Origin: an uncultured Cytophagia bacterium
GTDB lineage: Bacteria; Zhuqueibacterota; Zhuqueibacteria; Thermofontimicrobiales; Thermofontimicrobiaceae
Direction of reading: 5' to 3'
NCBI GenBank assembly: GCA_964647995.1
Contig: CAZYNP010000032.1
Coordinates: forward strand, 1 to 52,488
DNA length: 52,488 nt
The position numbers and the translations under genes are program-made. The notes beneath the pieces are model-generated. The model saw only the letters and a list, made by a program, of their open reading frames with translations. It did not search any database and was not told the origin of the DNA. This document shows positions 6,535-52,488 of the stretch, piece by piece. The first letter of the stretch is position 1. Every line of letters begins with the position of its first letter.

Positions 6535-6568
6535 GGATCAACGCCAGGATTCAGCGCCAATTCCCAAG

Positions 6569-6616: not shown

Positions 6617-6631
6617 AATGATCACATTCGC

Positions 6632-7081: not shown

Positions 7082-7214
7082 CGATACGCCCTCCCTCTGA
7101 AATTTTTCACCAATATCCAGTCAGCATACGAGATTTTGTCGCTCAAAAGAACCACAACACATTCCGGGCACGAGCGGTCGCGGAATCCATCCAGGTCCCC
7201 ATTCCCTTGAGCGA

Positions 7215-21807: not shown

Positions 21808-22150
21808 GTCACGAATTTTCCTCTTATTTCACATTCCACCAATCTTCCCTGATCGACGATCCATAGAATTTTTTATTTGTATCAGTTACTATTTTTAGAA
21901 TAAATCAAATGCTAAAGGATCATTAATTTTTTTATTGCTTTCAGCTTTTATAGATTTATTACTTGACTTTTTAAATTAATTTCATTATTTTACAATTACG
22001 GCTTGAGCAGATTTATCATACCTGCTGCAACAGCTCTCGATTTTTTATACAAAACATTTCAATCCTATACTTTTATTCTATTTGTTCCCTCTATTTTCTT
22101 TTTATCAGTTCGTTTCAATTTTATTATTACGCTCATTCCCAAGGCAAAAA

Positions 22151-22717: not shown

Positions 22718-23554
22718 ATGGATGATAAAGAGTTTGAGCAAATCATGGGAAAATGGAAACAAGCTGAGCAAAAAGCTCTCAATAAATTTGCTCTCCGCAG
22801 AAGCAATGCCTGTCTCAGCTTTGAGCAATTTGAAAAATATGCTCATGGCAATTTCACGGAAGTAGAAAGACAACATGTATCGAGCTGCGACTATTGCCAA
22901 AAAATGATCAAATTGTTTCACCAAAATGCTCCGCTATCAATAGCACGATTGTGGGTTCGGTGGGTGCAATGGATCAAACAGTGGCGGCATGATCGGCCCG
23001 CGGAAGACCGTTCTATCCCAGAATTCTTACCTTTTCCGCATCCAACCTACAATACGCTCAAACTGGTTTTACCAATCCTGGTCATCACTATCATGCTGTC
23101 AGTCCTGGTGTTTCGTAATGAAAAAGGAGTCGCACCTATAGCGCAGATTGAGCCTGCTCCATATCTTCCGCTTATATTGCGGGGAAATTTGAAGACGACA
23201 GAAGAGATTAAACTATTTCAAGAGGGAATGTCTTTTTATTCTCAACAAAATTATCCTCAAGCAATCGACAAATTATCCCAGGCAGTTAAATTGGACTCAA
23301 CCTGGGCCGCTGGATTTTTTTATTTGGGGGTGTCTCAGTTGTTGAACAATCAACCCCTTCTGGCCATTCCTTCGTTGCAAAAAGCAATCGCATTAGGCGA
23401 TAGTTTCCTCATTGAGAAGAGCTATTGGTATTTGGGAAATACCTATTTGCTGGTAGATCAAGGTTCACGAGCGCGGCAGGCTTTTGAAAAAGTGACGGAG
23501 ATGGGGGGTGATTATGCTAAACCGGCCAGTCAGATGCTCCAGCGACTTGAATAA
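22718..23554 (+). CDS. anti-sigma factor, zf-HC2 domain, single TM segment, periplasmic TPR repeats
   Basis: 'HVSSCDYCQKM' is the H-x3-C-x2-C zinc finger. A hydrophobic helix 'LVLPILVITIMLSVLVF' is followed by TPR-like repeats. It sits directly downstream of the ECF sigma gene. Confidence 0.7.
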   Translation: MDDKEFEQIMGKWKQAEQKALNKFALRRSNACLSFEQFEKYAHGNFTEVERQHVSSCDYCQKMIKLFHQNAPLSIARLWVRWVQWIKQWRHDRPAEDRSIPEFLPFPHPTYNTLKLVLPILVITIMLSVLVFRNEKGVAPIAQIEPAPYLPLILRGNLKTTEEIKLFQEGMSFYSQQNYPQAIDKLSQAVKLDSTWAAGFFYLGVSQLLNNQPLLAIPSLQKAIALGDSFLIEKSYWYLGNTYLLVDQGSRARQAFEKVTEMGGDYAKPASQMLQRLE

Positions 23555-26600: not shown

Positions 26601-29600
26601 CCAACGGCTTAAATGAGCCAAGTGCACCCTATTCGCTGGATTTGAACGGCACCGATGAGGTCCAATCGCAACCAATTGATTTAGCCGGAAAGAACAATGT
26701 CGCCCTGCTGTACTATTACCAAAAGAAAGGTGGCGGCGACTCACCCGAATCCGGCAATGATCTGTACATCGATTATTACAATTCATCTGGTAATTGGGTT
26801 AATTTGAAGCAGCATCTGGGTAGTAGTCCCGATATGACCGCTTACCAATTGGAATATGTACCGCTACCAACTGCCGCTTACTATAACGGTTTCCGCATTC
26901 GATTTCGTACCACTGGCGATGCGAATTCTGATGATTGGTTTGTGGATGATGTGAAAATTCAAATCTTGCTACCGCCCAATATTACCTGGACACCCCAAAG
27001 TATCTCAGTTGCTTTATCGCCAACAGCTACCACCTCTCGTTTTCTCACTATCGGTAATACTGGCCAAGGAGATTTGTTTTTCGATCTCTTCGTTGCCATT
27101 CCTATGGGTGCTAAAGCAAACCTGCTAAATTTCGAACCCGCAACAAGAGATTATCCTGATAATTATTTTAGCTGCAATTTCTTGAAGGACGAAAGTGATT
27201 TCCGTCACGGGGCGCCGGTGCTGCTACGTCGTGGCGGTCCTGACAGCTACGGCCATTTTTGGAGAGATAGTGATGAACCCGGTGGACCAAGTTTCAATTG
27301 GGTTGAGATTTCAACCTCTGGTACACCAATTACCGGATTGGGCGATGATACAAATGTAGGACCATTCGATATCGGTTTTTCTTTTCCATTCTTTGGGAAT
27401 AATTTCTCTTCTTTCCGATTTTGCACTAATGGCTTTATAAGTTTTTCCAGCACCTCAACCAGCTACCAAAACAATCCAATTCCGAATAACTCTGTTTACA
27501 ACCTTGTCGCTCCATTCTGGGACGACCTGGATTTTCGAACCAGCGGCAGCGCTTTTTATAAATTTGACGGCGAAAAACTTATTGTCGAATACAAAGATGT
27601 TCCGCTTCGTTCCAACGCCGGCGGCCCTTACACATTTGAAATTTTGCTTTATCGTGATGGTCGCATTAAATTTCAATATTTAACTATGGGATCTCCCGTC
27701 AATAGTTGCACTGTAGGCATCCAGAACGCCAATGGCACCGATGGGTTAGAGATAGCTTTTAATACAAGTTATCTTCATAATAACATGGCCATACTGATTT
27801 ATGCCTACGCGACCAATTGGTTGTCATTTAAACCGACCTCGGGACACATTCCGCCAGGAGGAAATCTAGTTGACACCTTATCATTCAATACAACAGGGCT
27901 CACACCGGATTCCACTTATCAGGTCAATCTTGTTATTCGGAGCAACGACGAAATCAATGACACAGTGCAAGTTCCAATAGAACTAAAAATTAATAGTCCC
28001 GATATTAGTTCAACGCCATCGGCCATAAATGTTGCGCTATCGAAACCAGATAGCATCCGACAAGCCATAATGTTGACTAATAATGGCACTGGCAACTTGC
28101 AATATCAACTTGGTGTTATAGGCGCGCTAACATCATCGAGCATGGGAGGGGTTGGGATTGTTGCCAATTATATCGATCGCACTTTACATACGATTGACCT
28201 GAAGTCGAACACAATCAGAGGCCCCTTCTTAAGTGGGAGTTTGGGTTCTTCGAATTTGCTGGATGTTGCTATTACGCCGGATAATAAAACCGCTTTAATT
28301 TCAAATGGTGCCGGTAACCAGGTTTATTTCGTCAACATAGATAATCCAGCAGCGCCTACAATTCAGGGTAAAGTTGATCTTGGTTTTTTTGCTGAAGATA
28401 TAGCTATTACACCGGACGGCAGGTTCGCTTTGGTTTCGGATGGTGCAAATGATACAAAAATAGCCGTTGTGGGAATAACCAGCCGTACTTTATCAACGAG
28501 CATTAATCTCACTCCTCGTCGGGTGCAATCAATAGCCATTGCTGCCGATGGTCAAACCGTGCTGGCAGCAGATTATAATAATGCTCGCGTCCACGTACTT
28601 AGACTGAATCCAATAACTGGAACTATAATCGACCTCAATCTAGCGCTGGTTGTTGGCGATGGGCCAATCAATGTCAGCGTAAGCCCAGATGGTCAAACCG
28701 CATTAGTTGCCAATTATTCTGGATCTTCGATCAGCGTCCTTCGCATCACGGCGCCGGGCGAGGTCAGTGTCGTGGCATCTATTCCCAATCTCAGCTATCC
28801 CCAGTCCATCGCTTTTAGCCCGGATGGGATCAGTGCCTATGTCCTTGAAACTGGTACAAGTCCGGATCGTCTCGCGGCTTTAACTATCAGCGGCGCGGGC
28901 CAAGTTACCGACACTGGCCAACGAGCGACCTTAATTGCCAATGCGACTGGTGGCTTTTATGGAATCGATGTCATAGCTATTTCTGCTAACGGCTCCCGCG
29001 CTTATGTAGGGAATTCATCATCATCAGGAACTTCAACAAATAAAGTAGCTGTTGTGGAACTCAATACGATGACGATGGCCAATAGTCTATCCGCGGGTAA
29101 TTATCCGGTTGCTGTGGCCCTAAGCAACAGTAGTTCATGGTTATCTGTTGCTCCTCCAGCAAACGGCGAGATTCTTCCCAACGGCACTAAAAGCATTGAA
29201 CTTATCATCCACTCGAAAGATCTGGCACCCGATTCGACCTATCATGGCAAAGTGCTGATTTCGAGCAATGACCCCGATGAATCCCTTGTAACTATTCCGG
29301 TGAAATTAACCGTTACCAGCGGGCCTCACGCTCCCAAGCATTTCGTCTTTCGCGCCAATACTGAGGTTAGCTACAGCATTATTATCGATGCGGCCACGTT
29401 GGATCAACTGCCGTTGCAAGTGGGCGATGAAATTGGCGTTTTTACGCCGGCGGGCTTATGTGTCGGCGCCTCAGTATGGACCAGCGCGCTTCCACTACCT
29501 CTAGTCGCCTGGATGGATGACAATCAAACCTCGGTTGTGGACGGCTATCGCGTTGGCGAGAAAATGTTCTTCCGCATCTGGGATGCCAGTGGCGGCGCGA

Positions 29601-29932
29601 CAGCGGAATACCCTGCAATCCCCACTTATACTGCTGGCAATGGTAACTTCGGCGATGGCCCGTTTGCCAGGATTGCCAAATTGGAAGCTCTCACTTCAGC
29701 GAAGCAAACTATCTATCTGACCAGAGGCTGGAATTGGATTTCTACTAATGTTGAACCTGAGACTCTAAACGTGGCCGCGGTCACTCGCAAAGTGCTGAAT
29801 TTAGTCATTATGGTCAACGGTAATGGGCAATTTTATATTCCCGGAGTAGTCAATGCAATTGGAAATTATAACGTTCGGGAAGGTTACAAAGTCTACGTCA
29901 GCGCCAACGATTCCTTGGTCATTTTGGGCTAG
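23630..29932 (+). CDS. giant secreted subtilisin-like (S8) serine peptidase with multiple C-terminal modules (two lectin/MAM-like jelly-roll repeats, 7-bladed YVTN/lactonase-type beta-propeller, a ~115-aa domain shared with the 31057 gene, tandem ~70-aa modules); native C-terminus continues past an in-frame TAG
   Basis: AAGGAG ribosome-binding site and a signal peptide. The S8 triad context is 'VIVADISTGID' (Asp), 'DGHGTHVMG' (His), 'AGNEG' (Asn) and 'GTSMSAPHIVGAAALM' (Ser). A duplicated ~150-aa 'ESGDDLWVDYYDNSGNWVNLKQ' module is present. Beta-propeller repeats are 'ITPDG..A.V.N'. About 2100 aa up to TAG 29930-29932. Confidence 0.8.
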   Translation: MRKTINNHWQFFWLAIGMSILLSSSAIKPQTGDRILPWMAQTKSQISPQAWQKMTVDVRMLIGAPTDFLNLKANVMEVSQIETAEPEVGVLVKSTGHREELEALGAKVGSQIGDIFTIRIPIAKLPELANNPSVMSIAPSLKRRATLDASVVENKAKQVHQGQYTTTPPTYSGYTGKGVIVADISTGIDWRHSDFINDSNNTSRILSIWDQTLIPQSGEKGPAGFSYGVEYTQADINNELDGTPTGYVRSKDLDGHGTHVMGIIAGDGSATGGGLPGYTYVGMAPQADIIVIKSLLYDSQILDAVSYAMNKADQFGKPVAFNMSFGGHFGAHDGTSLLEQGIDLAVNRGKIVIAVSAGNEGTDAAHGAYIHAEGTVATGSTNTTTFVIPSYTPNSSAGNDFLEFNLWYQGNDNINVKVTTPNGYTWNASTGYDNNAGATATSDGAIYIDNASTGRDFNNNDRMCYILIWDYYSSQPPRAGTWTITVTGNNITEGGHYDAWLDFSQLGTNQAYFSASSGSNKELIGIPGTADKVITVAAHSTKTSWVDYSGATRTVSGAALNDLAYFSSPGPTRDDPGHIVGRQKPDISASGFGVVAARSADASWSTSSMNRNKDGVHLMIWGTSMSAPHIVGAAALMLEKNPTLTAQEIKSLLTANAHADAYTGSVPNLRWGYGKLDIAAVMQQVTPRQQAVDLFPSFQADDGLSGTTVSFKARVQNSGATNDSYNLTVSSHSWPTTIWNAAGTSQISSTGVINARSQLEILIKVQIPAGTQPSRWDTAVIRATSASNAAIADQISVVTRTPASLPWSDNFPSTKLDTIKWNFNGGPAELNSLGTNEPSSPYSLNLNGNERGGDEVQSQAIDLSGKAYVMLSFYYQRTGGGNAPESGDDLWVDYYDNSGNWVNLKQYLGSGSSMSSYMQEQILLPATAMHARFKIRFRNVGTPGPNDDWFIDNVAIAEMLPATIPWTDNFPTTTLDANKWPVNIGPAVVNSNGLNEPSAPYSLDLNGTDEVQSQPIDLAGKNNVALLYYYQKKGGGDSPESGNDLYIDYYNSSGNWVNLKQHLGSSPDMTAYQLEYVPLPTAAYYNGFRIRFRTTGDANSDDWFVDDVKIQILLPPNITWTPQSISVALSPTATTSRFLTIGNTGQGDLFFDLFVAIPMGAKANLLNFEPATRDYPDNYFSCNFLKDESDFRHGAPVLLRRGGPDSYGHFWRDSDEPGGPSFNWVEISTSGTPITGLGDDTNVGPFDIGFSFPFFGNNFSSFRFCTNGFISFSSTSTSYQNNPIPNNSVYNLVAPFWDDLDFRTSGSAFYKFDGEKLIVEYKDVPLRSNAGGPYTFEILLYRDGRIKFQYLTMGSPVNSCTVGIQNANGTDGLEIAFNTSYLHNNMAILIYAYATNWLSFKPTSGHIPPGGNLVDTLSFNTTGLTPDSTYQVNLVIRSNDEINDTVQVPIELKINSPDISSTPSAINVALSKPDSIRQAIMLTNNGTGNLQYQLGVIGALTSSSMGGVGIVANYIDRTLHTIDLKSNTIRGPFLSGSLGSSNLLDVAITPDNKTALISNGAGNQVYFVNIDNPAAPTIQGKVDLGFFAEDIAITPDGRFALVSDGANDTKIAVVGITSRTLSTSINLTPRRVQSIAIAADGQTVLAADYNNARVHVLRLNPITGTIIDLNLALVVGDGPINVSVSPDGQTALVANYSGSSISVLRITAPGEVSVVASIPNLSYPQSIAFSPDGISAYVLETGTSPDRLAALTISGAGQVTDTGQRATLIANATGGFYGIDVIAISANGSRAYVGNSSSSGTSTNKVAVVELNTMTMANSLSAGNYPVAVALSNSSSWLSVAPPANGEILPNGTKSIELIIHSKDLAPDSTYHGKVLISSNDPDESLVTIPVKLTVTSGPHAPKHFVFRANTEVSYSIIIDAATLDQLPLQVGDEIGVFTPAGLCVGASVWTSALPLPLVAWMDDNQTSVVDGYRVGEKMFFRIWDASGGATAEYPAIPTYTAGNGNFGDGPFARIAKLEALTSAKQTIYLTRGWNWISTNVEPETLNVAAVTRKVLNLVIMVNGNGQFYIPGVVNAIGNYNVREGYKVYVSANDSLVILG

Positions 29933-30864
29933 CCTGTTCCGGTCTCAACCCCGATTACGTTAAAAACCGGCTGGAATCTGGTGAGCTATCTGCCACATCA
30001 ACCACTGAATGCAGAAGTAGCCCTGGCTCATATTCACGCGAATCTGGCGATCGCCAAAAACGACATTGGCGGTTTTTTCATCCCCGGAGTGGTTAATACT
30101 TTGGGCAATATGGTGCCGGGAGAGGGTTATTTGCTGTATGTTAATAAATTAGACACACTGATATATCCTTCTGGTCCGAACTTAGCTAAGATTGCCGACC
30201 CATTGGTAGTAACTCATTGTTCTAAACCCGCCCACTTTCAGGTTGTGCCCCCACAGGCGACAATTATTGCGTTGTCGTCACTTCGGTTAAAATCGACGGA
30301 CAACTGCCCACGCCCGGCACTGAGATTGGTGTATTTACTGAGAGTGGTCTTTGTGTTGGCGGCGGTGTCTGGATGAATCAAGAAATTCTGGCAATTACTG
30401 CCTGGCAGGATAATGGTCAGACACCCGAGATTGATGGTTACCTTCCCGGTGAAAAGATGCTCTTTAAAATTTGGTGCAACGACAACGACCGGGAGATCGA
30501 CCCGTTAGCATCATTCAAAAATGGCGATGGCAGCTTCGGCAATGACAGCTATGCCCAGGTGGAATTAGAAACCATCATGTTGCCAACCAGCTATGCCCTG
30601 GAACAGAATTATCCGAATCCGTTTAATCCAGAAACAACAATTAAATATCAGCTCCCCCGGCCGGGAAAAGTGACATTGATAATTTATAATTTGCTAGGGC
30701 AGGAGATCAAAAGGCTGGTTGATGATTATCAATTAGCAGGATACCATACTGCCCTCTGGGATGGGACGGATTCTCAAGGACGATCACTGACAAGTGGGAT
30801 CTATGTCTGTCGAATTCAGACCGAAGAATTTTTCGATAGCAAAAAACTTATAATGTTAAAATAG
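29933..30864 (+). pseudogene. disrupted 3' continuation of the S8 gene: same-frame segment after the TAG, -1 frameshift in a C5 run (30248-30252), then a third copy of the shared domain and a T9SS type-A C-terminal sorting domain
   Basis: Frame-2 translation after the TAG repeats the preceding ~70-aa module (GWNLVSYLP...FFIPGVVNTLGN). If the C5 run is read as C6, the translation becomes 'HFQVVPPTGDNYCVVVTSVKIDGQ', which aligns with 'HFKFTANTGESYSIVIDAATIDNQ' of the downstream gene. The region ends with the sorting-domain sequence 'NYPNPFNPETTIKYQLP...IYNLLGQEI'. Confidence 0.6.
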
Positions 30865-31056
30865 GCTGCGAGAGTTCTCTATCTTTTATTTTGAACTCAA
30901 TCAATCATCCTTTTTCTATAGCCAGGCAACTGCTTTCTCTGGGCTTGAGTTCTCCTTAATTATCGCCTGCTAACATTTGGTGATACTGATGTTCAAGAAC
31001 AGGCCTGGGACCATCCGCATCAAGCGGATAGTCCCAGGCAACTTAATTAATTTAGA

Positions 31057-34000
31057 ATGGAGCTAATGAAGATGAACACCAAAACTCTTAGCAAAAAAAC
31101 ATACCCGTTTTTTTTCCTAGCGACCATTATTTTAATTTTGATACTAGCGAAAATTTGTGAAGCAAGAAATGCACCCAAAATTGAAACCATTTGGGACAAT
31201 CAAATTAAAAAATATAAAATTAGAATGACATTTGACGTGCCTGCCACAAAAGAAAGCGATCCCATCAATCATTCATCCAACCTCCCCCCACTGGCGACAG
31301 CGACACTTGATGTTCCCAAATTCTCAGGTCTTTTTTTAGCAGCAGTTTCCGATGATAAAACACGAGTACTAATCCGTGATCAGCATGCGCCTAGAGCAGA
31401 GGTTAGTTCGTTGGAACTCAATTTGCAAGGTACCGTCAAAAATATCTGCACAATAGATAGAAATATACCGCCCCATTTTGAATCCGATAAAATAACAACC
31501 GACAAGTCAATTTCAGGAGCAAGCGAATCTAACTCTCAGGTTATCCTTATACCCGCAACACAAATAGATACAAAGTCATTACGAACCGCGCCCGTATTTA
31601 AATCCCATGTTGATACAACCAAGGTTTCAATAGCATTCACACCCATATCCATGTCTGCTGCATCAATGCAAGATAATGTCATCAGCAGTACGCCTGCTCT
31701 CAAAGAGATGAATCTTGCATTCGATCTCATAGCAAAAAAAACTTATCTAAAAGACAGCGCTGGCAATGAAATTTCGAGTCCTTCATCTGGTCAAGCAGTT
31801 TATTTCTATGGCGATTGGGATTGTATCGGTTCAGGAACCACGCCCTCTTTCAGGCGCGAATTCAGGCTTGACGGCTCATTATATTCTTATCTTGACGCAA
31901 CAGCCGTGGCAGGATATAGTTATACCACTCATGCTTCGGTAGCTTGGACTGCCACTGCTGGTTCGCACACCCTCGAATTCATTTTAGATTCTAATAACAC
32001 TATTGCCGAAACCAGCGAAACCAACAATACCTCAGTAAAGCAATGCACCACTGCTGGCGTATCGTTAGATCTCGTGGCAGAAAGAGTTTATTTAAAGGAT
32101 AGCAATGGGAATGAAATAGGTGTGCCAGCGGTTGGTCAATCAGTCTATTTTTATGCCGATTGGCGCTGCGATGGCTCAGGCACTACCCCTGTCTTTCGAG
32201 CTGAGTTCAGGCTTGATGGTTCTCTCTGGTCTTATGGGGAAGGAACCGCCACAGGTGGATACGGCTATACTAGCAATTCCAATATTCCATGGACGGCAAC
32301 GGCTGGCACCCACACGTTAGAACGAATTCTGGATGTTAATAATACTGTAACCGAAAACAGCGAGATTAATAACGTCGCCAGCAAGACCTGGAACTCAACA
32401 GGCTGGGATCTGGTAGCCGACAGAGTCTATCTAAAGGATAGCGCTGGTATTGAAGTTGGGACCCCAGCGCTTGGGCAAACCATATATTTCTATTCTGATT
32501 GGCACTGTGATGGCTCTGGCACTTCGGCCAGTTTCCGAGCTGAATTTAAACTTGATGGCTCGCTGTATGCCTACTGGACAGGTACTGCTGATGGAGGCCA
32601 TCATTACATCAGCAATGCGAATTCGCCATGGACGGCCACCAGCGGCAGTCACACTCTGGAGTGGATTTTGGACACCAATGCCAATATCTCTGAAAGCAAC
32701 GAAAATAATAACCTAGCAACCAAAAGCTCGACCACCACGGGTTGGGATCTGGTGGCCGATCGAGTCTATTTACTGGATGGCGCAGGTAATGAAGTTACAA
32801 CTCCCTCGGTTGGGGAATCGATCTATTTCTATTCGGATTGGCACTGCAACGGCTCTGGCACCACGTCGAGTTTTCGATCTGAATTTCGCCTGGACGCGTC
32901 TTTATATGCCTTTATTGATGGCACAGCCATCGGCGGCCATAGTTACAGTACTTATACTGGCCCATGGACGGCTTCCTATGGAAGCCATACATTAGAGTGG
33001 GTAGTCGATAGTAATGATGCGGTTTTAGAGGCCGATGAAAACAATAATAATTCTTCAATGACATGGAACACCGCGGGCATAACAGTCATATCGCCTAATG
33101 GTGGAGAGGTTTGGCCTGTCGGAGCAACCGAAACGCTAACCTGGTCTTCGGGTGGCACCAGCGGCAGTGTTAAAATTGAATATTCTACCAATGGTGGTGC
33201 CAATTGGTCAACTATCATCTCCAGTACGATCGATTATGGCTCATACATTTGGACAATTCCAAACACGCCGTCATCAGCGTGCCTTGTCAGGATTTCGGAC
33301 GTTGACGGAAATCCTTCTGATCAAAGTGACCATCCATTTACGATCATGAATGCAGCTATCACCTTAACAAAGCCCAATGCCGGCGAAAAGTGGACTGCGG
33401 GCTCATCACAAGAGATTACCTGGACCTCGAGCGGAACCAGCGGTAATGTGAAGATCGAATATTCTGCGAATGGTGGCTCCAATTGGTCAACAATTATCAC
33501 CAGTACTCCTGATGACGGTGCATACTCCTGGACAATACCAAATACGCCTTCGACAAATTGTCTGGTCAAAATTGCCGACACCGATGGCACTCCTTCCGAT
33601 CAAAGCGATAATCCATTTGCGATCCAAAGTGCATATATTACTGTAAACCAACCCAACGGAGGCGAAATCTGGACAGCCGGAACAACACAAAGTATAACCT
33701 GGAATTCCTTCGGCACTAGTGGGACCGTAAAGATAGAATACTCTGCGAATAATGGTTCAAGCTGGTCAACAATCATCTCAAGCGCCCCCGATAATGGGAT
33801 ATTTTCATGGAGCATTCCGGATATTTCATCAACAACATGCTTGCTAAGAATTTCCGACATTGATGGAAACCCATCCGACCAAAGCGACGCCCCTTTCACC
33901 ATCCAGAAGGCATATCTTACTGTTGTTAGACCCAATGGGGGCGAGTTATTCACTGTTGGAACAACTGAACAAATCACCTGGACGTCAGCAGCCACCAGCG

Positions 34001-36459
34001 GTAACGTTAAAATTGAATACTCCGCCAACAATGGAAATAGTTGGGCATCCGTCATTTCCAGCGGTCCTGACGATGGTGCTCACCCCTGGACAATTCCCAG
34101 CACTCCTTCGACCAATTGCCTGGTAAAAATCTCAGATGTCGACGGCAATCCTTCAGATCAAAGTGATGCTATTTTTACAATTTGTAATAATTATATTGTC
34201 GTGATTTCACCTAATGGAAATGAAGTATGGGAGGTTGGATCGATTAGAGACATTGTCTGGACTTCCAATGGTAATAGCGGCAATGTAGCAATCGAATATT
34301 CAACAAATGGCGGCATTGACTGGACAGTCGTTAGCTCCAGTACACCGGATGATGGATCATATTCCTGGGTAATTCCGAATACATCGTCAACAAACTGTCT
34401 GTTAAAAATTGCAGATATTGATGGCTATCCTGTCGATCAAAGTGATGGCTTTTTTACTATCCAGTCCTCTCATTTTAAATTCACCGCCAACACCGGTGAG
34501 AGCTATAGCATTGTTATTGATGCGGCCACTATTGATAACCAGTCATTGCTGCCTGGAGACGAAATTGGGGTCTTTACGTCGGCCGGTTTGTGCGTGGGAG
34601 CAACCACCTGGACCGGCACAACACCGTTGTCCTTAACCGCGTGGGCAGATGATAGCCAAACACCAGCAATTGATGGCTACCAAACTGGCGAAATGATGTT
34701 TTTCCGCATCTGGTCGCTAAGTTCCATAACGGAATACCGAACAGTTGCCACCTATTCAGTGGGCAATGGTAAATTCGGCGACGGCGCATACGCCAGAGTA
34801 TCCCGACTGGAGGCGCTAATTACCGAACAATTAACCGTTTCGATCTCGGACACAACCGGTGCGATCAGCAGCATTATTGACATCCCCATTATGATAACCG
34901 ATGTATCAGGCAAAGGAATTATCTCAGTTGCAATGACCATTCAGACCGACACGACCGTCCTGATTCCTATTAGCGCAAGCAATGCTGGCACGCTTACTGC
35001 AGGCTGGGGCATGCCAACTTACAATACGTTAAATGGGCAAATAACCGTAGGCATTTCTGGTACTGCACCACTCAGTGGCAAGGGGAAATTGTGCTTTATC
35101 CGGTGTCAGGTCAATCCAAGGATAGCCGCTGGCAACAGCACGATAGTCCATTTTGTCAAAGTAATGCTGAATGAAGGAAACCCGCCAGCCATAACCCGTG
35201 ATGGCTTATTTAGGGTCAGCAGTGGCTTTCGTGTGGCTGGCAACATAACTTATTATAGCTCAAATTCTGCTATTAGAGATGCGGTGGTTTCCTTAACCGG
35301 TTTCGCACGGCTGGAAAAAACGACTAATATGGCAGGACAATATGAATTCCTGAATGTTGTTGCTGGCAACTATACCGCCCGCCCAGGAAAGGCAAGAGCA
35401 CAAGGAGATGCGATTACCCCATACGATGCCGCCTTGACTTTGCAGTATATCGTCGGCCAACGATTGTTTACGCCCTATCAAATGATCGCAGCGGATGTTT
35501 CAGGCAATGGTCAGGTTTCTTCCTATGACGCATCGCTTATTCTCAAATATTATGTTCAGCTCATCCGCCAATTCCCCGTTATGTCGGATTCGATTCACTT
35601 CTGGACATTTGTGCCCAATAATTATCCCATCAGCTCAGTCAACTGGTCGCTGGCGCCAGATAGTCTCCGCTATGAACCGCTTAATACCGATCAATTGGAC
35701 CAGAATTATCTGGCAATTGTCTATGGCGATCCAAGCGGAAATTGGAGTCCGTCGGGGATGTTGGCAGGAGCCAGCAAAACAGGGGAAGTCCAGGTCACGC
35801 TCGGCTTGGGGAAATTACATTCGCTGCCAGACAACCGTTTGATGGTTCCAATAATGGTGTCTGGGGCCAATGCCCTCGTTTCTGCTGGGCTGATGGTGAA
35901 TTATGATCCTGCTGCCGTCAAGATAGTTGCAGTAACAACAACAGAATTGACCTCCGATTTTATCATTGCGCATCATGTTGACGCCAATCGACTCACCATT
36001 GGGCTAGCAGGCGCTGCGGCGATCAATCAAGATGGTGCCATAGCCACAATCATCTTTGAGAGCTCGCTTTCGAGTAACGAAATGACCGATATCCTTACGT
36101 TAAGCCAGGCGGATGTGAACGAGCAACCGGTTGCGGTTAAAGTTCAGCCAACCGCTCAAATACCAACGACCTCTATCCCGCAGCAATTCGTTCTGTTTCA
36201 GAACCATCCAAATCCGTTTAATCCGAGCACGTTGATTCGCTATCATCTGCCGGTGTTAGCTACGGTTAAATTGGAAATCTATAATTCAAGGGGAGAGTTG
36301 GTTAGAACCTTGGTGAATGAGACGCAACGCGCTGGAGATTATTCCGCCTCCTGGGATGGACGGAACGAGAGCGGCCACCCGGTGGCCAATGGAATGTATA
36401 TCTATTACCTTCGGTCGGGAGATGTGGTGTTAGCTCGGAAAATGGTTCTTCTTCGATAG
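31057..36459 (+). CDS. giant T9SS-sorted surface protein: 6x ~115-aa CARDB-like repeats, 9x ~83-aa beta-sandwich repeats, shared ~115-aa domain, cohesin-like and dockerin-like modules, T9SS type-A CTD
   Basis: N-terminal hydrophobic anchor. The start may be ATG 31066 or 31072. Repeats follow 'WDLVADRVYLKDSAGNE...YFY.DW.C.GSGT...WTA..GSHTLE' and 'ITVISPNGGEVW..G....TW.S.GTSG.VKIEYS.NGG..WS'. The dockerin-like repeats are 'ITPYDAALTLQYIVG' and 'AADVSGNGQVSSYDASLILKYYV'. Cohesin-like segments are present. The C-terminus is 'NHPNPFNPSTLIRYHLP...IYNSRGELV'. Confidence 0.8.
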   Translation: MELMKMNTKTLSKKTYPFFFLATIILILILAKICEARNAPKIETIWDNQIKKYKIRMTFDVPATKESDPINHSSNLPPLATATLDVPKFSGLFLAAVSDDKTRVLIRDQHAPRAEVSSLELNLQGTVKNICTIDRNIPPHFESDKITTDKSISGASESNSQVILIPATQIDTKSLRTAPVFKSHVDTTKVSIAFTPISMSAASMQDNVISSTPALKEMNLAFDLIAKKTYLKDSAGNEISSPSSGQAVYFYGDWDCIGSGTTPSFRREFRLDGSLYSYLDATAVAGYSYTTHASVAWTATAGSHTLEFILDSNNTIAETSETNNTSVKQCTTAGVSLDLVAERVYLKDSNGNEIGVPAVGQSVYFYADWRCDGSGTTPVFRAEFRLDGSLWSYGEGTATGGYGYTSNSNIPWTATAGTHTLERILDVNNTVTENSEINNVASKTWNSTGWDLVADRVYLKDSAGIEVGTPALGQTIYFYSDWHCDGSGTSASFRAEFKLDGSLYAYWTGTADGGHHYISNANSPWTATSGSHTLEWILDTNANISESNENNNLATKSSTTTGWDLVADRVYLLDGAGNEVTTPSVGESIYFYSDWHCNGSGTTSSFRSEFRLDASLYAFIDGTAIGGHSYSTYTGPWTASYGSHTLEWVVDSNDAVLEADENNNNSSMTWNTAGITVISPNGGEVWPVGATETLTWSSGGTSGSVKIEYSTNGGANWSTIISSTIDYGSYIWTIPNTPSSACLVRISDVDGNPSDQSDHPFTIMNAAITLTKPNAGEKWTAGSSQEITWTSSGTSGNVKIEYSANGGSNWSTIITSTPDDGAYSWTIPNTPSTNCLVKIADTDGTPSDQSDNPFAIQSAYITVNQPNGGEIWTAGTTQSITWNSFGTSGTVKIEYSANNGSSWSTIISSAPDNGIFSWSIPDISSTTCLLRISDIDGNPSDQSDAPFTIQKAYLTVVRPNGGELFTVGTTEQITWTSAATSGNVKIEYSANNGNSWASVISSGPDDGAHPWTIPSTPSTNCLVKISDVDGNPSDQSDAIFTICNNYIVVISPNGNEVWEVGSIRDIVWTSNGNSGNVAIEYSTNGGIDWTVVSSSTPDDGSYSWVIPNTSSTNCLLKIADIDGYPVDQSDGFFTIQSSHFKFTANTGESYSIVIDAATIDNQSLLPGDEIGVFTSAGLCVGATTWTGTTPLSLTAWADDSQTPAIDGYQTGEMMFFRIWSLSSITEYRTVATYSVGNGKFGDGAYARVSRLEALITEQLTVSISDTTGAISSIIDIPIMITDVSGKGIISVAMTIQTDTTVLIPISASNAGTLTAGWGMPTYNTLNGQITVGISGTAPLSGKGKLCFIRCQVNPRIAAGNSTIVHFVKVMLNEGNPPAITRDGLFRVSSGFRVAGNITYYSSNSAIRDAVVSLTGFARLEKTTNMAGQYEFLNVVAGNYTARPGKARAQGDAITPYDAALTLQYIVGQRLFTPYQMIAADVSGNGQVSSYDASLILKYYVQLIRQFPVMSDSIHFWTFVPNNYPISSVNWSLAPDSLRYEPLNTDQLDQNYLAIVYGDPSGNWSPSGMLAGASKTGEVQVTLGLGKLHSLPDNRLMVPIMVSGANALVSAGLMVNYDPAAVKIVAVTTTELTSDFIIAHHVDANRLTIGLAGAAAINQDGAIATIIFESSLSSNEMTDILTLSQADVNEQPVAVKVQPTAQIPTTSIPQQFVLFQNHPNPFNPSTLIRYHLPVLATVKLEIYNSRGELVRTLVNETQRAGDYSASWDGRNESGHPVANGMYIYYLRSGDVVLARKMVLLR

Positions 36460-36523
36460 CCGCATTCGCCAAATGGGGTGATGATATTTTAGATTTAGCA
36501 TCTCAATTCTTAATGAGAAAAAA

Positions 36524-36580
36524 CCTCCTGCCAGTGGGGTCTATGTTCTATTGCCACTGACGGGAGGTTCAACATTTTTT
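36524..36580 (+). terminator. rho-independent terminator after the 31057 gene (CCTCC-TG-CCAGTGG ... CCACTG-ACG-GGAGG followed by TTCAACATTTTTT)
   Basis: Long imperfect hairpin at 36524-36567 followed by a T6 run. Confidence 0.5.
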
Positions 36581-36602
36581 GGCATGAAAGGAGTGCATAC
36601 GT

Positions 36603-39600
36603 ATGAATAAATCTAACTTGCTTGCCGCAATTGTGTTTGGTATTGGCCTATCCCTTCTACTACTGGTAGATTACATCTGGGCGCAGCAATCCCTCTCGCA
36701 ACAGGACTTTGAAAACCAGATAATGAGAACATTGGAGAAGCAGGATTCAACCAAATTAAATATTTTGGTCCGTGATCATCCCTTCAAACTCTTCCCGATT
36801 ATCACAAAACTATTGGATAACTACATTAGCGAAATCCTAGGGGGTCAAGTCGACAAGGCGCAGCAGCATCTCCGGAAGGCCGAGACAATTGCGCGATTAT
36901 ATCAAAAAATGTACAAGCAGGATGCCTTCACCGATCGTTTGGAAAGATATCAGGGATGGTCGCGGGAACAAATGGAAAAAAAGGTATTCGTCGATACCTT
37001 GCTCAGCCAGGGTCGCGGCGCAGCTCTACAGAGCGAATTTGAAGTAGCTCAAAAAGCTTTTAAAGAGGCGCTGGTCATCAGTCAGCAGATCGGATATTTG
37101 GAAGGCGAATGCCGAGCGATGGGGAATATCGGCAATGTTTTTGACGAGATCGGCCGACATGATTCCGCCTTGGTTTACATCCAGAGCAGCCTGCAATTAG
37201 ACCAGAAACTCGCTGATAAGCCTGGAGAGGCTAAAAGCTTGTCCAATTTAGCCACTCGTTTTTGGGTTTTGCATCAATTTGCCGATGCGATTCGAACTTT
37301 TAAAGAAGCATTGGCCCTGGCACGAGAGGTAGGAGATCGCTATCAAGAAGGTATTGTGCTTGGAAACATGGGAGCAACCTACTTGACTATGGGAAATCTG
37401 GACAGCGCAGTTACGCTTCTGGAGCAATCACTCCTTTTGGCTCACGAAACAAAGAATCAAATCGATGTTGGGGTCCGGCTCGGCAACCTGGGGAATCTTT
37501 ACTATAAGAAAGGCGATCCTGAGAAAGCGTTAGAATATTGGGAACAGGCGTTAGCCATACATAAAAAAATGAACAATCAAAAAGACATGGTGATCGTCAA
37601 AGTCAATATTGGGATCATGAACGAACAGTTTGGTCGCATCGATCAGGCGATTAAATATTTAAAAGAGGCGGCCGAAACTGCCCGGCACATCAAAGTGTTT
37701 GCATTGGAGGTGAGCGCTCTCCGCCGCATCGTCCGCCTGCAGCGACTGATAGGTGAACATGAAAAATGTCTGGCCACCCTCTCGCAAATCTTAGAAATTC
37801 AAGTTGCCAATGGCGACAGCGTGGGGGTCTGCGGCACCCTGCTATCTTTGGGCATCACCCATAGTGAAATCAGCAACTACAACGAAGCTGAGGCGTGTTA
37901 CAATCGCGCCCTGAATATAGCAAAAACAGTCGATGATCCCGAACCGCTCTTGAGCTGTCACATCAACCTTGGCTCGTTGTATCATGCTAGGAGTGATCAT
38001 GCCCGAGCGTTAGATGCTGACTTTAAAGCGCTCAAAATTGCTCGTGTCAGCAAAACAGTTGATGCCGAGATAACTTGTTATAACAACATCGGCGTGGTTT
38101 ATAGTGATCTCGGAGATATCGAAAAATCCATTTATTATCATCAGCAAGCGCTGGCTTTGAATGAGAAAATAAAAAATAAACAAGGGATCGCCGACAGCAA
38201 ACTAAATCTCGGTGCAAATTATCTGAATTGGGATCGGCTTTCTAAAGCAGATCAATTGCAAAAATCCAGGCAATGTTTTGAAGAGGCTTTGGTCCTATGT
38301 CGCCAAACTGGCAATAAGCGAGTAGCTGCAATGTGCTTGATGAATCTGGCTACCATTTATAAATTAACTGGCAACTCTTCAAAAGCGCTGGAGTTGCTTC
38401 ATCAAGCTATAGCTATTCAAGATACGCTCCAGGACAGGTCTTATCAGGGAGTTAGCTTTTATCTCCTCGCTGGCATATTTCAACAATTAAAAAATGATTC
38501 AGCCGCATTTGATAATTATCAAAAATCCCTAACTAAGGCACAGCAACTTGGAATTCCGGGAGATATCTGGCAGCCGCAATACCAGATTGGTCTGATATTA
38601 GAAAAACAAGGGCGGGAAAATCAAGCACTAACTTATTACACCAATGCCATAAATACGATCGAATCCATTCGGTCACGACTGCAACTTGAGTCATTCAAAG
38701 TCGGTTTTATGGAAAATAAAATCGGGGTCTATGAGTCGATCATTAAGTTGCTGGTTAAGCAAGGTCGCTATCAGGACGCGTTCGCTTACTCCGAAAAAGC
38801 CAAAGCCAGAGCATTGTTAGATGCACTGGATCGGAGTAACCGGGATATTACCCGTGGTATCTCCGCAGAACTGCGCCAGCAAAAAAAACACCTGGAACAA
38901 AAGATCATCAGTATTCAAGAAGCGCTATTCTCCGAACGAACCCAAAACCAGACAGCACCAGATTACAAGAAACTGGCTATGCTTGAAAAGCGATTGCTCA
39001 AAATCCGAAATCAATATCAGGCGCTTTTACAGGAGATACAAATTCATCATCCGCAGTATGGTCAAATAATGGGCTTTCGTGCTCCCCTGCGCATTCAGGA
39101 AGTGCAACAGCGAATACTTTCACCCAAGACCGCACTTATAGAATACTTCGTTGCTAAAGATCAAATCATTGTCTGGACATTACGCCCCGATGGCAGTCAT
39201 TGTGAGTCATTACCTATAACAAGCGCAGAATTGAAGTTGTTGGTTGATAGCCTGCGCCAACCTTTTCGTTCAATTAAAGAGGGCAAGATTCTGGAACTGT
39301 CAGAAGTTAACTTCGATTTGGCATTGGCGCGAAAATTATATGACCAACTGATTCGCCCTATTGAAAAGCAACTGGTTTCAGCCAGCGAATTGATCATTGT
39401 TCCCGATGGCGTCCTGCATTATTTGCCATTTGAGGCATTAATTACTGAATTGAAAACCGCCGAATCCAGTCAAAGCGTGTTATTTTCACAATTCGAGCAA
39501 GCCCATTTTTTCATTGAGGACTATGCCATTTCTTATGCGCCATCTGCCAGTGTTCTGGATTCCAGGTTGCGCCGAAAGAAGAAAACATCTCCAATGAAGG

Positions 39601-40298
39601 GCCAGCTACTGGCGCTGGGAAATCCACATTTCGGCAAATTCAGCGGGCGGGAAATGCGCGCAGTCAGCGACACCTCTGCCGAAAGTATACGCATACACTT
39701 AGCAACGGGAGGAGTTCTGGCAGCGCTACTGCACCCATTACCTCAATCAGAAGTGGAAGTCGATAGCATCGCCAAACTACTGCAGCCTTCTTTGGTTTAT
39801 AAAGGAGCGGATGCAAAAGAAGAATATTTCAAACATAATGCCGCTGCCTATCAATTCATTCATATCGCATCGCATGGCTTTGCCGATGAACAGCAACCGC
39901 TTTATTCGCATGTCATCCTGGCACAAGATGACGACCCTACCGAAGACGGATTCCTCTATGCCCATGAAGTTTTCAATATTTCGCTCAATGCTGAGTTGGT
40001 GACGCTTAGTGCTTGTGAAACCGGGCTGGGAAAATTTGTCTGCGGTGAAGGATTGACCGGCTTAACGCAAGCCTTTCTATATGCGGGCGCTCCATCATTG
40101 CTGGTCAGTTTATGGAGCGTGGACGAATCCACTTCTCTCATCATGAAAGAGTTTTATAAAAATTTGAAAGATGGTATGTCCAAAACTGCAGCACTGCGAC
40201 AAGCAAAATTGAAATTAATTCGCACACGGGAATCTAGATTTTCATTTGCCCATCCCTTCTTATGGGCACCGTTCGTGTTAGTTGGAGAATGGAAATAG
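36603..40298 (+). CDS. TPR-repeat + CHAT-domain (caspase-like peptidase) protein with N-terminal signal/anchor
   Basis: AAAGGAG ribosome-binding site. The N-terminus is 'LLAAIVFGIGLSLLLLV'. More than 12 TPR-like repeats are present ('EGECRAMGNIGNVF', 'AKSLSNLATRF' and others). The C-terminal CHAT domain has a His/Cys dyad context 'FIHIASHGF' and 'LVTLSACETGLG'. Confidence 0.8.
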   Translation: MNKSNLLAAIVFGIGLSLLLLVDYIWAQQSLSQQDFENQIMRTLEKQDSTKLNILVRDHPFKLFPIITKLLDNYISEILGGQVDKAQQHLRKAETIARLYQKMYKQDAFTDRLERYQGWSREQMEKKVFVDTLLSQGRGAALQSEFEVAQKAFKEALVISQQIGYLEGECRAMGNIGNVFDEIGRHDSALVYIQSSLQLDQKLADKPGEAKSLSNLATRFWVLHQFADAIRTFKEALALAREVGDRYQEGIVLGNMGATYLTMGNLDSAVTLLEQSLLLAHETKNQIDVGVRLGNLGNLYYKKGDPEKALEYWEQALAIHKKMNNQKDMVIVKVNIGIMNEQFGRIDQAIKYLKEAAETARHIKVFALEVSALRRIVRLQRLIGEHEKCLATLSQILEIQVANGDSVGVCGTLLSLGITHSEISNYNEAEACYNRALNIAKTVDDPEPLLSCHINLGSLYHARSDHARALDADFKALKIARVSKTVDAEITCYNNIGVVYSDLGDIEKSIYYHQQALALNEKIKNKQGIADSKLNLGANYLNWDRLSKADQLQKSRQCFEEALVLCRQTGNKRVAAMCLMNLATIYKLTGNSSKALELLHQAIAIQDTLQDRSYQGVSFYLLAGIFQQLKNDSAAFDNYQKSLTKAQQLGIPGDIWQPQYQIGLILEKQGRENQALTYYTNAINTIESIRSRLQLESFKVGFMENKIGVYESIIKLLVKQGRYQDAFAYSEKAKARALLDALDRSNRDITRGISAELRQQKKHLEQKIISIQEALFSERTQNQTAPDYKKLAMLEKRLLKIRNQYQALLQEIQIHHPQYGQIMGFRAPLRIQEVQQRILSPKTALIEYFVAKDQIIVWTLRPDGSHCESLPITSAELKLLVDSLRQPFRSIKEGKILELSEVNFDLALARKLYDQLIRPIEKQLVSASELIIVPDGVLHYLPFEALITELKTAESSQSVLFSQFEQAHFFIEDYAISYAPSASVLDSRLRRKKKTSPMKGQLLALGNPHFGKFSGREMRAVSDTSAESIRIHLATGGVLAALLHPLPQSEVEVDSIAKLLQPSLVYKGADAKEEYFKHNAAAYQFIHIASHGFADEQQPLYSHVILAQDDDPTEDGFLYAHEVFNISLNAELVTLSACETGLGKFVCGEGLTGLTQAFLYAGAPSLLVSLWSVDESTSLIMKEFYKNLKDGMSKTAALRQAKLKLIRTRESRFSFAHPFLWAPFVLVGEWK

Positions 40299-40451: not shown

Positions 40452-40480
40452 ATTGACATTGTCCCAAAAGTGCCTTATCT
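40452..40480 (+). promoter_or_regulatory. sigma-70-like promoter candidate for the SPFH gene (TTGACA-17 nt-TATCTT)
   Basis: -35 TTGACA at 40452-40457, -10 TATCTT at 40475-40480, about 80 nt upstream of the start. This assumes the organism uses a sigma-70-type consensus. Confidence 0.3.
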
Positions 40481-40562
40481 TTGCAGGCGGTGAAATCGCG
40501 TAACCAAAAAAATGATAGCTCAAAGAAAGCTAATTAGTAACCTGCCAAGTGAAGGAGGCGTT

Positions 40563-41513
40563 ATGTTCGGCTATATCATTGCATTTTTATTCGGGGTGGT
40601 TATTATTCTGTCGTTCTTGAACCAACGAGCGCGCATGAGCGGTTCTAACCTGCGAGATTTTTTGGGCGGCAAAGGCAAGCTGATTGTGGCAGGCATTTTA
40701 TTGTTGCTGGTAATTATATTGCTGTCGCAATCGATTATGGTCATCCAGGCGGGCACTGTCGGCGTGGTGAAGCGTCTGGGAGCCGTGCAGGCTGAGCTGG
40801 CACCGGGATTGCATTTCATCCTGCCGCTGATAGACCAGGTGGTGCTTTATCCCACCATTAAAAAAACGTATGAAGCCTCTGACGATCCTCAAGTTAGTCG
40901 AGCCGACTTTCCCGACATCATCATCACGGCGCTCACTTCGGACGGCCAGCAGATTCGAGTTGGCATCACTGCACGGTTCATGATTCAACCGGGCAAAGCG
41001 GCCTGGATTCTGCAGAACCTGGGCACTGAGGATGAGTACGTCGAAAAAGTGGTCAAAACCGAAATCCGGGGTTCGGGCCGTCGCGTGCCTACCAGATTCG
41101 CGGCCTACGACCTCTACACCAAGAAAAGCTACGAAGCACAACAGACGCTTTTCGATGAGGTCGCTCCCAAATTTGAAAAAAATGGACTCGTCCTGGACGA
41201 ACTGGTTTTGAGGAATATTACCTTTACTGCTGAATATGCCAAAACGCTGGAAGAAAAGCAGATCGCGCTGGAGAATATCACCACGGAAAAAAATAAGTTA
41301 GAGCAGGAAAAAATTCGCAAGGAGCAAAAGATCGTGGCCGCTGAGGGCGACGCGAAAAGCATCGAAATTCGTCAGGCTGCCTTAACGAAAAACCCAACCA
41401 TCATCCAATGGGAGTTCGTGCAAAAACTGGCACCCAATATTCAATGGGGTGTATTACCGCAAAATATGATCCCCATGATCAACTTGCAGGGCATGACCGC
41501 AGCGCCCAGATAG
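40563..41513 (+). CDS. SPFH/Band-7 (stomatin/prohibitin-like) membrane protein
   Basis: Start ATG 40563 with a GAAGGAGG ribosome-binding site. An N-terminal TM helix is followed by the SPFH domain ('GTVGVVKRLGAVQ...LTSDGQQIRV') and a C-terminal coiled coil. Confidence 0.8.
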   Translation: MFGYIIAFLFGVVIILSFLNQRARMSGSNLRDFLGGKGKLIVAGILLLLVIILLSQSIMVIQAGTVGVVKRLGAVQAELAPGLHFILPLIDQVVLYPTIKKTYEASDDPQVSRADFPDIIITALTSDGQQIRVGITARFMIQPGKAAWILQNLGTEDEYVEKVVKTEIRGSGRRVPTRFAAYDLYTKKSYEAQQTLFDEVAPKFEKNGLVLDELVLRNITFTAEYAKTLEEKQIALENITTEKNKLEQEKIRKEQKIVAAEGDAKSIEIRQAALTKNPTIIQWEFVQKLAPNIQWGVLPQNMIPMINLQGMTAAPR

Positions 41514-51975: not shown

Positions 51976-52289
51976 GGTTTGGTCAATAAAAAGGATCCTG
52001 GATCAACTATCAAATCTGGCAGCACTCGGGAACAATCCGCCACCAGCGCAGTCAAAAGTTGGTACATCGTATCGAATTTAAAACGCCAAATTTAAGCAAT
52101 CGAAGTTTGGAAGTCAAGGTTTTTATTTGCCAACAGGAGAAATCGCAGCTATCGGCTATCGGCGACGGCCCTTCCGAATCCGAGTTAATGGACTCCCGCG
52201 GATCAATTTCCGCCAGGAAGTGAGCTCTCCGGTGGTACCTAAAATTTCAAAGAATTCGGCGACTTCCAATAACCGGTGACTTTAGTGAT

Positions 52290-52399
52290 GGTAAAAGATC
52301 AGTTATAGCTGGACTGACCGGTCGCTTAAAAATGGAGTGCTTCCAAAATCTCAAAAAGTTAAGCTACCGGTTAGTAGCTCTGTCCAGTCATAAGTGTGG
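52290..52399. repeat. copy B of the ~110-bp hairpin-forming repeat (tandem with copy C)
   Basis: Head-to-tail with the next copy. The arms are CTGGACTGACCGGTCGCTTAA and TTAAGCTACCGGTTAGTAGCTCTGTCCAG. Confidence 0.7.
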
Positions 52400-52488
52400 C
52401 AAAAGATCAAGTATAGCTGGACTGACCGGTCGTTTAAAAATGGAGTGCTTCCAAAATCTCAAAAAGTTAAGCTACCGGTTAGTAGCTC
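52400..52488. repeat. copy C of the ~110-bp repeat, truncated by the window edge
   Basis: Near-identical to copy B (3 substitutions over 89 bp). Confidence 0.7.

Follow-up and report, generated by a model that had tools for sequence, protein, structure and literature searches.

A leader-bearing TPR-CHAT protein closes a conserved sigma/anti-sigma/type IX secretion cargo cassette and probably belongs to an envelope signalling switch

The stretch of DNA analysed here (the window) comprises 52,488 nucleotides of contig CAZYNP010000032.1 (assembly GCA_964647995.1) from an uncultured bacterium. Its plus strand carries, at 36603–40298, a gene for a 1231-residue protein with an N-terminal hydrophobic leader, a long array of tetratricopeptide repeats (TPR) and a C-terminal CHAT domain. 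This TPR-CHAT gene is the last of a same-strand run that reads, in order, extracytoplasmic function (ECF) sigma factor, anti-sigma factor, giant S8 subtilase, giant CARDB/cohesin/dockerin protein and TPR-CHAT protein. Comparison with homologous loci showed that the TPR-CHAT gene terminates a conserved cassette made up of sigma factor, anti-sigma factor and cargo of the type IX secretion system (T9SS), and that ECF sigma genes cluster beside TPR-CHAT genes in the wider family.

The open reading frame (ORF) of the TPR-CHAT gene begins with the ATG at 36603, with a GGAG-type Shine-Dalgarno sequence 8 nucleotides upstream. As no other possible start lies between it and the preceding in-frame stop, an N-terminal extension of the protein is impossible. 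Pfam searches matched TPR_12 in seven stretches (232 bits) as well as TPR_MalT, and together with the helix pattern of the AlphaFold2 model they delimit a TPR/helical-repeat array at about residues 121–744 (36963–38834, plus strand). The model (residues 28–1227; mean pLDDT 83, pTM 0.76) contains roughly 13 TPR-like helical hairpins, after which come a helical linker and an alpha/beta CHAT domain. The latter, placed at residues 907–1229 (39321–40289, plus strand) by Pfam, sequence and profile alignments and Foldseek, covers positions 2–289 of the 289 of PF12770 with 229.2 bits against a cut-off of 24. The predicted catalytic residues are His1091 (39873–39875), within the motif HIASHGF (39861–39881), and Cys1138 (40014–40016), within LSACETG (40005–40025), all on the plus strand. 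The leader, the at least 12 TPRs, the CHAT domain and the intact His and Cys motifs that a preliminary description had read from the sequence were all confirmed.

A closer inspection of the dyad showed that His1091 (SHG) and Cys1138 (SACETG) do not vary in any of three alignments, of 18, 8 and 52 homologues. When a profile of the CHAT region was compared with solved structures, it matched the TPR-CHAT protein of Craspase (8d9f, E 6e-10) and DdvA, an anti-sigma factor of Myxococcus xanthus with a periplasmic TPR-CHAT module (8rot_B, E 4e-9), and the profile positions tHG and SACeTG fell on the Craspase motifs CHG and GACET. The profile was needed for these matches, since phmmer with the single CHAT-region sequence gave no match among the PDB sequences. 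The best PDB matches of the full model in Foldseek were separase, DdvA (8rot_A, E 4e-14) and Csx29/TPR-CHAT, with E-values from 1e-15 to 1e-11. Separase gave the top matches over the whole model (E 2e-15) and shares the helical-repeat N terminus and the C-terminal caspase fold, whereas its sequence similarity is marginal (E about 0.03). Separase is a eukaryotic, nuclear/cytoplasmic protease that is regulated by securin and cleaves cohesin. The protein is therefore a bona fide CHAT-family member with the TPR-CHAT architecture of separase, Craspase and DdvA. As modelled, its fold is that of the caspase-hemoglobinase group, and it is predicted to be a cysteine protease. A decidedly improbable alternative is that it would act as an exported non-catalytic scaffold, in which the TPRs would serve as adaptor or chaperone of large T9SS substrates and CHAT as a binding module. 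Long TPR arrays do bind proteins, and dyad mutants of DdvA had no phenotype in unperturbed cells (PMC11506125), but His and Cys are invariant across the family in conserved motifs, which argues for retained catalysis.

The leader occupies residues 1–27 (36603–36683, plus strand) and reads MNKSNLLAAIVFGIGLSLLLLVDYIWA/QQ, the slash marking the putative cleavage site. Only five residues (MNKSN) precede the hydrophobic segment. It is composed of an n-region with K3, a 17-residue hydrophobic core (Kyte-Doolittle 13-residue maximum of 2.89) and a small-residue site (I-W-A/Q), and contains neither Cys nor a twin Arg, as would fit a Sec signal peptide or a signal anchor. The leader call is a heuristic, namely an N-terminal 13-residue window with a Kyte-Doolittle mean above 2.0, and cleavage was assessed with rule-of-thumb criteria. 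The sequence shows neither a lipobox nor a cytoplasmic domain. The protein is predicted to be exported through Sec and to face the periplasm, with the leader either cleaved or acting as an anchor. A very improbable alternative holds that the hydrophobic N terminus is an annotation artefact or a cytoplasm-facing anchor and that the protein works in the cytoplasm like Csx29. A 17-residue h-region is indeed long for a cleaved signal peptide. However, there is no alternative upstream start, the Shine-Dalgarno sequence before 36603 is good, the five residues with a Lys before the core place the body outside the cytoplasm by the positive-inside rule, and the leader is kept in all three orthologues and in most homologues.

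The frequency of such leaders was determined in several sets. A leader was found in 77/120 best homologues from a search of 5.8 billion proteins, and in 0/120 MurE homologues, taken as a cytoplasmic control set. An index-free search with the CHAT domain only returned 82,645 cluster representatives at E <= 1e-10; among the 111 representatives of at least 850 residues drawn from the best 149 of them, 91 (82%) had a leader, as did 63 of the 84 5'-complete CHAT ORFs of the fetched loci. A C-terminal transmembrane (TM) helix followed by an Arg/Lys-rich basic tail was present in 9/120 homologues and 20/111 cluster representatives, a topology that is sensible only if the body is extracytoplasmic. This element, carried in the first set by P0013, P0015, P0016, P0020, P0030, P0037, P0052, P0070 and P0106, resembles a C-terminal anchor or sorting signal. 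By this measure an exported TPR-CHAT protein appears ordinary for its clade, in which the leader-bearing members form the majority, and the structure of a periplasmic TPR-CHAT module, that of DdvA, has been solved; the view that an exported CHAT protein would be unusual did not hold. A role of the TPR-CHAT protein as T9SS cargo was also considered and ruled out, as CHAT runs to residue 1229 of 1231 and leaves no sorting domain; a scan with Pfam and NCBIfam-type profiles found no Por_Secre_tail or TIGR04183 match in the protein.

The run to which the gene belongs opens with the ECF-type sigma factor gene (22082–22648, plus strand; Pfam Sigma70_r2 2.4e-15 and Sigma70_r4_2 1.3e-9). Its probable start is the ATG at 22151 (MSIKNF...), and its orthologue in L100/L101 is annotated with Sigma70_r2/r4_2. 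The next gene (22718–23554, plus strand) encodes a 278-residue protein with an N-terminal H-x3-C-x2-C zinc-finger motif (HVSSCDYC), one TM helix at about residues 114–133 and a predicted periplasmic TPR domain (TPR_2, TPR_1 and TPR_11 matches in the translation). Judged by this architecture, it is a putative classical membrane anti-sigma factor. The two secreted giants reported directly upstream of the TPR-CHAT gene were recovered, both with a T9SS sorting domain. The first is the S8 subtilase/beta-propeller gene (23630–29932, plus strand; Peptidase_S8, Lactonase, NIDO and Reelin_subrepeat-B), truncated by a TAG at 29930–29932 and followed by two ORF fragments (29981–30376 and 30373–30864; 29981–30864 in all, plus strand) that represent its detached C terminus, with Por_Secre_tail/FlgD_ig in 30373–30864. 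In the 94% relative L001 the TAG is a CAG and the ORF is intact (2411 residues, with the T9SS C-terminal domain at its end); a 1-nucleotide deletion in a C-run near 30247 is also seen with respect to L001. The gene is thus a single ORF of 2411 or 1954 residues in relatives and three ORFs in the window, either as a real pseudogene or truncated, periplasm-trapped protein or through a sequencing error. The second giant (31057–36459, plus strand) is an 1800-residue CARDB/cohesin/dockerin protein (CARDB 1.2e-26, Cohesin 4e-15, Dockerin_1) with a T9SS C-terminal sorting domain (FlgD_ig and TIGR04183 Por_Secre_tail).

The whole gene order of the window is kept in the 79% relative. Synteny in close relatives proves little. 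The informative contexts came from the search of CHAT representatives, which exposed a subfamily with 45–64% CHAT-domain identity. In four divergent relatives (40–55% identity) the order is again ECF sigma factor, zinc-finger/TM/TPR anti-sigma factor, variable T9SS cargo and leader-TPR-CHAT. The P0256 locus encodes a sigma factor of 182 residues, a TPR protein of 290 residues, two T9SS cargo proteins of 1141 (propeller/beta-helix) and 1216 residues, unrelated to the cargo of the window, and a TPR-CHAT protein. At L098, a sigma-like protein of 194 residues (local hidden Markov model (HMM), 1e-12) is followed by a zf-HC2/TPR anti-sigma factor whose TM and TPR part is 39% identical to that of the window (E 4e-38), a T9SS cargo protein, a TPR-CHAT protein 40% identical over 909 residues to the one described here, and two further cargo genes. 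L099 opens with the C terminus of an anti-sigma-family protein (40% identity over the last 42 residues, E 5e-12), then T9SS cargo genes, TPR-CHAT and another cargo gene, while in L097 a T9SS cargo gene lies immediately upstream of the CHAT gene. The locus P0243/L102 was left out as too short to inform. A reciprocal neighbourhood test started from the anti-sigma factor gave six homologues in a word-index search, of which only the 69% relative was usable. The cargo proteins of the close-subfamily loci carry a closely similar FlgD_ig-type C-terminal domain throughout. In this KSB1-type subfamily the T9SS cargo genes appear to be inserted between the sigma/anti-sigma pair and the CHAT gene.

This arrangement is compatible with a serious rival to a regulatory role, and essentially the one put forward in the preliminary description: the TPR-CHAT protein would be a sigma-controlled periplasmic effector protease that processes, matures or degrades the T9SS cargo encoded with it, here the S8 and CARDB/cohesin giants, or other envelope proteins in transit, by analogy with the sigma-E-controlled DegP. 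We consider it possible, though less likely than the regulatory role. In its favour, T9SS cargo genes flank CHAT in every informative member of the close subfamily, with differing cargo domains, and the common FlgD_ig-type domain could serve as a recognition element. L082 (positions 1–8438) provides a second arrangement of CHAT and a giant secreted protease: a TPR-CHAT protein (36% identical in the CHAT domain), a 176-residue ORF of unknown function and a 2172-residue T9SS giant with Fib_succ_major, a matrixin-type M10 protease, Big_5 and a lactonase-type propeller. Against this rival, removal of the T9SS C-terminal domain is already assigned to the PorU sortase, at the cell surface. In addition, most sigma-linked loci (acidobacterial type, L017 and Prolixibacteraceae) have no T9SS cargo nearby, and DdvA, the closest solved exported TPR-CHAT protein, is a signalling protein.

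The linkage with sigma factors was then quantified in 90 loci, 10 from genomes and 80 from metagenomes, with four more obtained by exact look-up. The genome loci, retrieved by a scan with the single protein, are distant Bacteroidota with no close relative among them. Forty ECF-type sigma ORFs were located within 3 kb of a CHAT ORF (371 kb scanned) and one farther away (334 kb). A sigma gene lies within 3 kb in 38/90 loci, and in 25 of the 38 loci that have at least 1.5 kb on both flanks. Pfam recognized Sigma70_r4_2 in 25 and Sigma70_r2 in 21 of the 41 sigma ORFs, and a sigma domain of any kind in at most 2 of 89 sigma-sized ORFs of the far zone; among the remaining 149 near-zone ORFs, zf-HC2 is the most frequent family. 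The signal does not come from redundancy, since 18 of the 38 CHAT clusters formed at 50% identity hold a sigma-linked member. A leader is present in 31 of 37 sigma-linked CHAT ORFs.

Fifteen loci (L014, L015, L041, L043, L044, L045, L049, L053, L055, L060, L064, L072, L078, L081 and L083) carry a tight same-strand operon of leader-TPR-CHAT, a divergent ECF-like sigma factor of about 190 residues and a zf-HC2 TM anti-sigma factor of about 300 residues. They derive from soil and sediment metagenomes, with one member named Pyrinomonadaceae, and their sigma factor, barely detected by Pfam, appears to represent a sigma family devoted to CHAT proteins and so far uncharacterised. The CHAT gene is the sole non-regulatory gene of these operons and could be the output of the regulon, a further point for an effector protease. 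Prolixibacteraceae loci have genes for a TPR protein and a sigma factor downstream of the TPR-CHAT gene, in convergent orientation. L017, the best metagenomic match outside the subfamily (33% identity), has CHAT and then a convergent anti-sigma and sigma pair with no cargo, its zinc-finger/TM/TPR anti-sigma factor being 31% identical to that of the window (E 3e-19). Of the 90 loci, L082 and L083 are the only ones outside the close subfamily with T9SS cargo near CHAT. As most sigma-linked loci are free of T9SS cargo, the common denominator is the sigma/anti-sigma pair. The supposed link to the T9SS neighbours therefore stands as a conserved order with variable cargo in four relatives, but the more general partner of the TPR-CHAT gene is the ECF sigma/anti-sigma pair. 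A different gene set was observed in a Thermoanaerobaculia metagenome-assembled genome (L016, 565–12287), where an operon of CHAT, a 341-residue unknown, Peptidase_C14 (caspase/metacaspase-like), TPR-CHAT, VWA and a 199-residue unknown adjoins a divergently transcribed ECF sigma gene.

Several known systems resemble this arrangement. In DdvA, a zinc anti-sigma domain, a TM helix and a periplasmic TPR-CHAT module are joined in one protein. The CHAT site is turned towards the juxtamembrane linker of the partner molecule, and the protein is proposed to cut itself as a signal-activated site-1 protease (PMC11506125; PDB 8rot). In proteins of the DdvA type, a three-helix motif missing from the CHAT active site is supplied in trans by the dimer partner. 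The window protein shares with DdvA the TPR-CHAT module, predicted from the leader to be extracytoplasmic, the His/Cys dyad and the genetic link to an ECF sigma factor, with a target TM-score of 0.49 between the full-length model and 8rot_A. A sigma gene accompanies TPR-CHAT not only in the window (22082–22648) but also in P0256, L098 and L017. The two differ in that DdvA is one polypeptide, whereas the TPR-CHAT protein of the window is separate, with five residues before the leader, and the zinc-finger anti-sigma factor is encoded by its own gene with its own small periplasmic TPR domain. With no cytoplasmic zinc domain and no upstream in-frame start, the protein was ruled out as a DdvA-type anti-sigma factor itself. 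According to the DdvA study, fusions of this kind occur only in Myxococcota and one Comamonas species (PMC11506125).

The second group is Csx29 of the type III-E Craspase (8d9f, 7y9x, 8eey), which has the same TPR-CHAT architecture, aligned catalytic motifs and target TM-scores of 0.5–0.6 with the model, but is cytoplasmic, RNA-activated and bound to Cas7-11. The identification of the window protein as Csx29 was ruled out by NCBIfam NF041237 (28.4 bits against a cut-off of 300) and the lack of cas genes. Both Craspase, whose substrate Csx30 feeds into an ECF-type sigma factor (PMC10028731), and the type III-B CHAT cascades act on sigma/anti-sigma pairs (PMC10028731; bioRxiv 10.1101/2023.06.23.546230). 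These precedents bear on another reading, in which the protein would be a periplasmic conflict or defence sensor that detects a phage or competitor protein and switches on a defensive regulon, as proposed for DdvA. A CBASS/CRISPR island is under DdvA control (PMC11506125), conflict systems often use CHAT as an effector or sensor domain (PMC10907252), and L003 (6645–24395; GCA_022842065.1) holds five tandem TPR-CHAT/CHAT paralogues on one strand, most with leaders, an expansion typical of diversifying sensors. This reading is nevertheless improbable: the window has no CRISPR array, cas genes or CBASS genes, PADLOC returned only generic TPR and subtilase matches and nothing defence-specific in it, the flanks are housekeeping genes, and the genes that intervene between the pair and CHAT, in place of the CBASS/CRISPR targets of DdvA, are secreted hydrolase- or adhesin-type giants bearing T9SS domains.

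The association of CHAT and subtilase genes with ECF54 sigma factors is already known: the neighbourhoods described in section 3.3 of PMC8999054, from Actinobacteria, contain subtilase, carboxypeptidase and CHAT genes, the loci are presented there without an anti-sigma factor, and protease control of the sigma factor was proposed. By gene content the window is alike, with its sigma gene upstream of the S8 (23630–29932) and CHAT (36603–40298) genes, and differs in the zinc-finger/TM/TPR anti-sigma factor right after the sigma factor and in its phylum, KSB1/FCB instead of Actinobacteria. To our knowledge, Actinobacteria have no T9SS sorting domains. In the literature searched, no paper was found that connects type IX secretion with the CHAT domain.

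Transcription of the run was analysed through its spacers. A hairpin with a 16-bp stem (31003–31039, plus strand; terminator-like scan and sequence) lies 18 nucleotides before the start of the CARDB/cohesin gene, and a conserved hairpin with a T-run (36522–36580, plus strand; dG -26 kcal/mol, fold z-score -3.1) ends 22 nucleotides before the CHAT ATG. The spacer 36440–36620 is 95% identical in L001 and L002, relatives with proteins 94% and 79% identical, and in both of them the pairing of the 36522–36580 stem is kept through G-U and restoring changes. No Rfam match was found in the window, the CHAT-upstream spacer included. The 36522–36580 hairpin is likely an intra-operon attenuator or terminator, or a stabiliser of the mRNA end, and the two hairpins may be intercistronic attenuators or processing sites. 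The second one was not retained as proof of a separate CHAT transcription unit, as the 22 nucleotides to the ATG also hold the Shine-Dalgarno sequence. Since this leaves no room for a promoter after the hairpin, CHAT is probably co-transcribed with attenuation, or its promoter is upstream of the hairpin.

Taken together, the sigma/anti-sigma pair as common denominator and the precedent of DdvA make a regulatory role the best supported one, and the TPR-CHAT protein probably belongs to an envelope signalling switch. The more specific proposal, to which we give about an even chance, is that it is a free periplasmic counterpart of the sensor/protease module of DdvA acting on the sigma/anti-sigma switch, with the cargo genes as output. 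In this scenario it would work like the periplasmic module of DdvA, as a separate polypeptide. A protein cue in the periplasm would be recognized by the TPR array, upon which the His/Cys site would cleave the anti-sigma factor in its periplasmic part (site-1-type) or modulate it in some other way. RseP-type intramembrane cleavage would follow, and the ECF sigma factor thereby freed would drive the cargo genes between the anti-sigma and CHAT genes. A functional analogy, with no homology claimed, exists with DegS/RseA/sigma-E, in which a periplasmic protease that carries a sensor domain for peptides cuts a single-pass anti-sigma factor in its periplasmic portion and an ECF sigma factor is freed; DegS is a trypsin-like serine protease with a PDZ domain, whereas a caspase fold and TPRs are found here.

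Several points weigh against this proposal. Gene neighbourhood cannot separate a regulator of the switch from one of its targets, and proteolysis by the CHAT domain is unproven for DdvA itself, as it is for any exported TPR-CHAT protein. The pair sits 13 kb upstream of the CHAT gene, and the hairpin and T-run directly 5' of the latter may attenuate its expression or uncouple it from the upstream genes. The ECF promoter presumed for the run in the preliminary description could not be traced: the generic pattern GAAC-N14-19-CGT was neither enriched nor present in the relevant spacers, and a search for bipartite words common to five upstream regions gave nothing usable and no shared ECF-type motif. 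As for the linkage, 52 of the 90 loci, many with short flanks, have no sigma gene within 3 kb, the 80 metagenome loci do not form a random sample, having been fetched by patterns taken from a selected alignment, many contigs are short, and the sigma HMM was built iteratively from CHAT-adjacent seeds, which the Pfam control offsets only partly.

In a broader form of the proposal, which is unlikely as a whole, leader-TPR-CHAT proteins in general would act in trans on zinc-finger anti-sigma factors, as periplasmic site-1 proteases or sensors, with DdvA as a rare fused form, and in the FCB group, including this KSB1 bacterium, the module would monitor periplasmic T9SS cargo and tune its transcription. 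The cargo could be sensed, for instance, via the shared FlgD_ig-type C-terminal domain bound by the TPR array, and type IX secretion would then be under the surveillance of a DegS/RseA-like loop with a caspase fold at its core. The interest of the locus lies less in export, which is ordinary, than in how strongly exported TPR-CHAT proteins are coupled to ECF sigma/anti-sigma pairs, a link that has so far received little notice. Recent work has established that CHAT proteases act on such pairs in three settings of defence (Craspase, type III-B SAVED-CHAT cascades and DdvA), and the great majority of bacterial TPR-CHAT proteins are uncharacterised. If a free periplasmic protein opens the anti-sigma switch, a function would be at hand for an orphan family of very large size, whose cluster representatives number in the tens of thousands, DdvA would be a special case of a general design, and in the FCB group a dedicated regulator of T9SS cargo expression would have been identified.

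Outside the run, the window flanks consist of ordinary chromosomal and housekeeping genes. Among named organisms, the best relatives of the MurE encoded in the window belong to candidate division KSB1 (Zhuqueibacterota), to which the bacterium is assigned. An SPFH/Band_7 gene (40512–41513) downstream of CHAT was dropped as a part of the module, as only the 79% relative conserves it and a sigma-70-like promoter match of its own (40453–40481) precedes it. A 108-bp tandem repeat (1.9 copies, 94% match) occupies 52284–52488 and runs into the end of the window.

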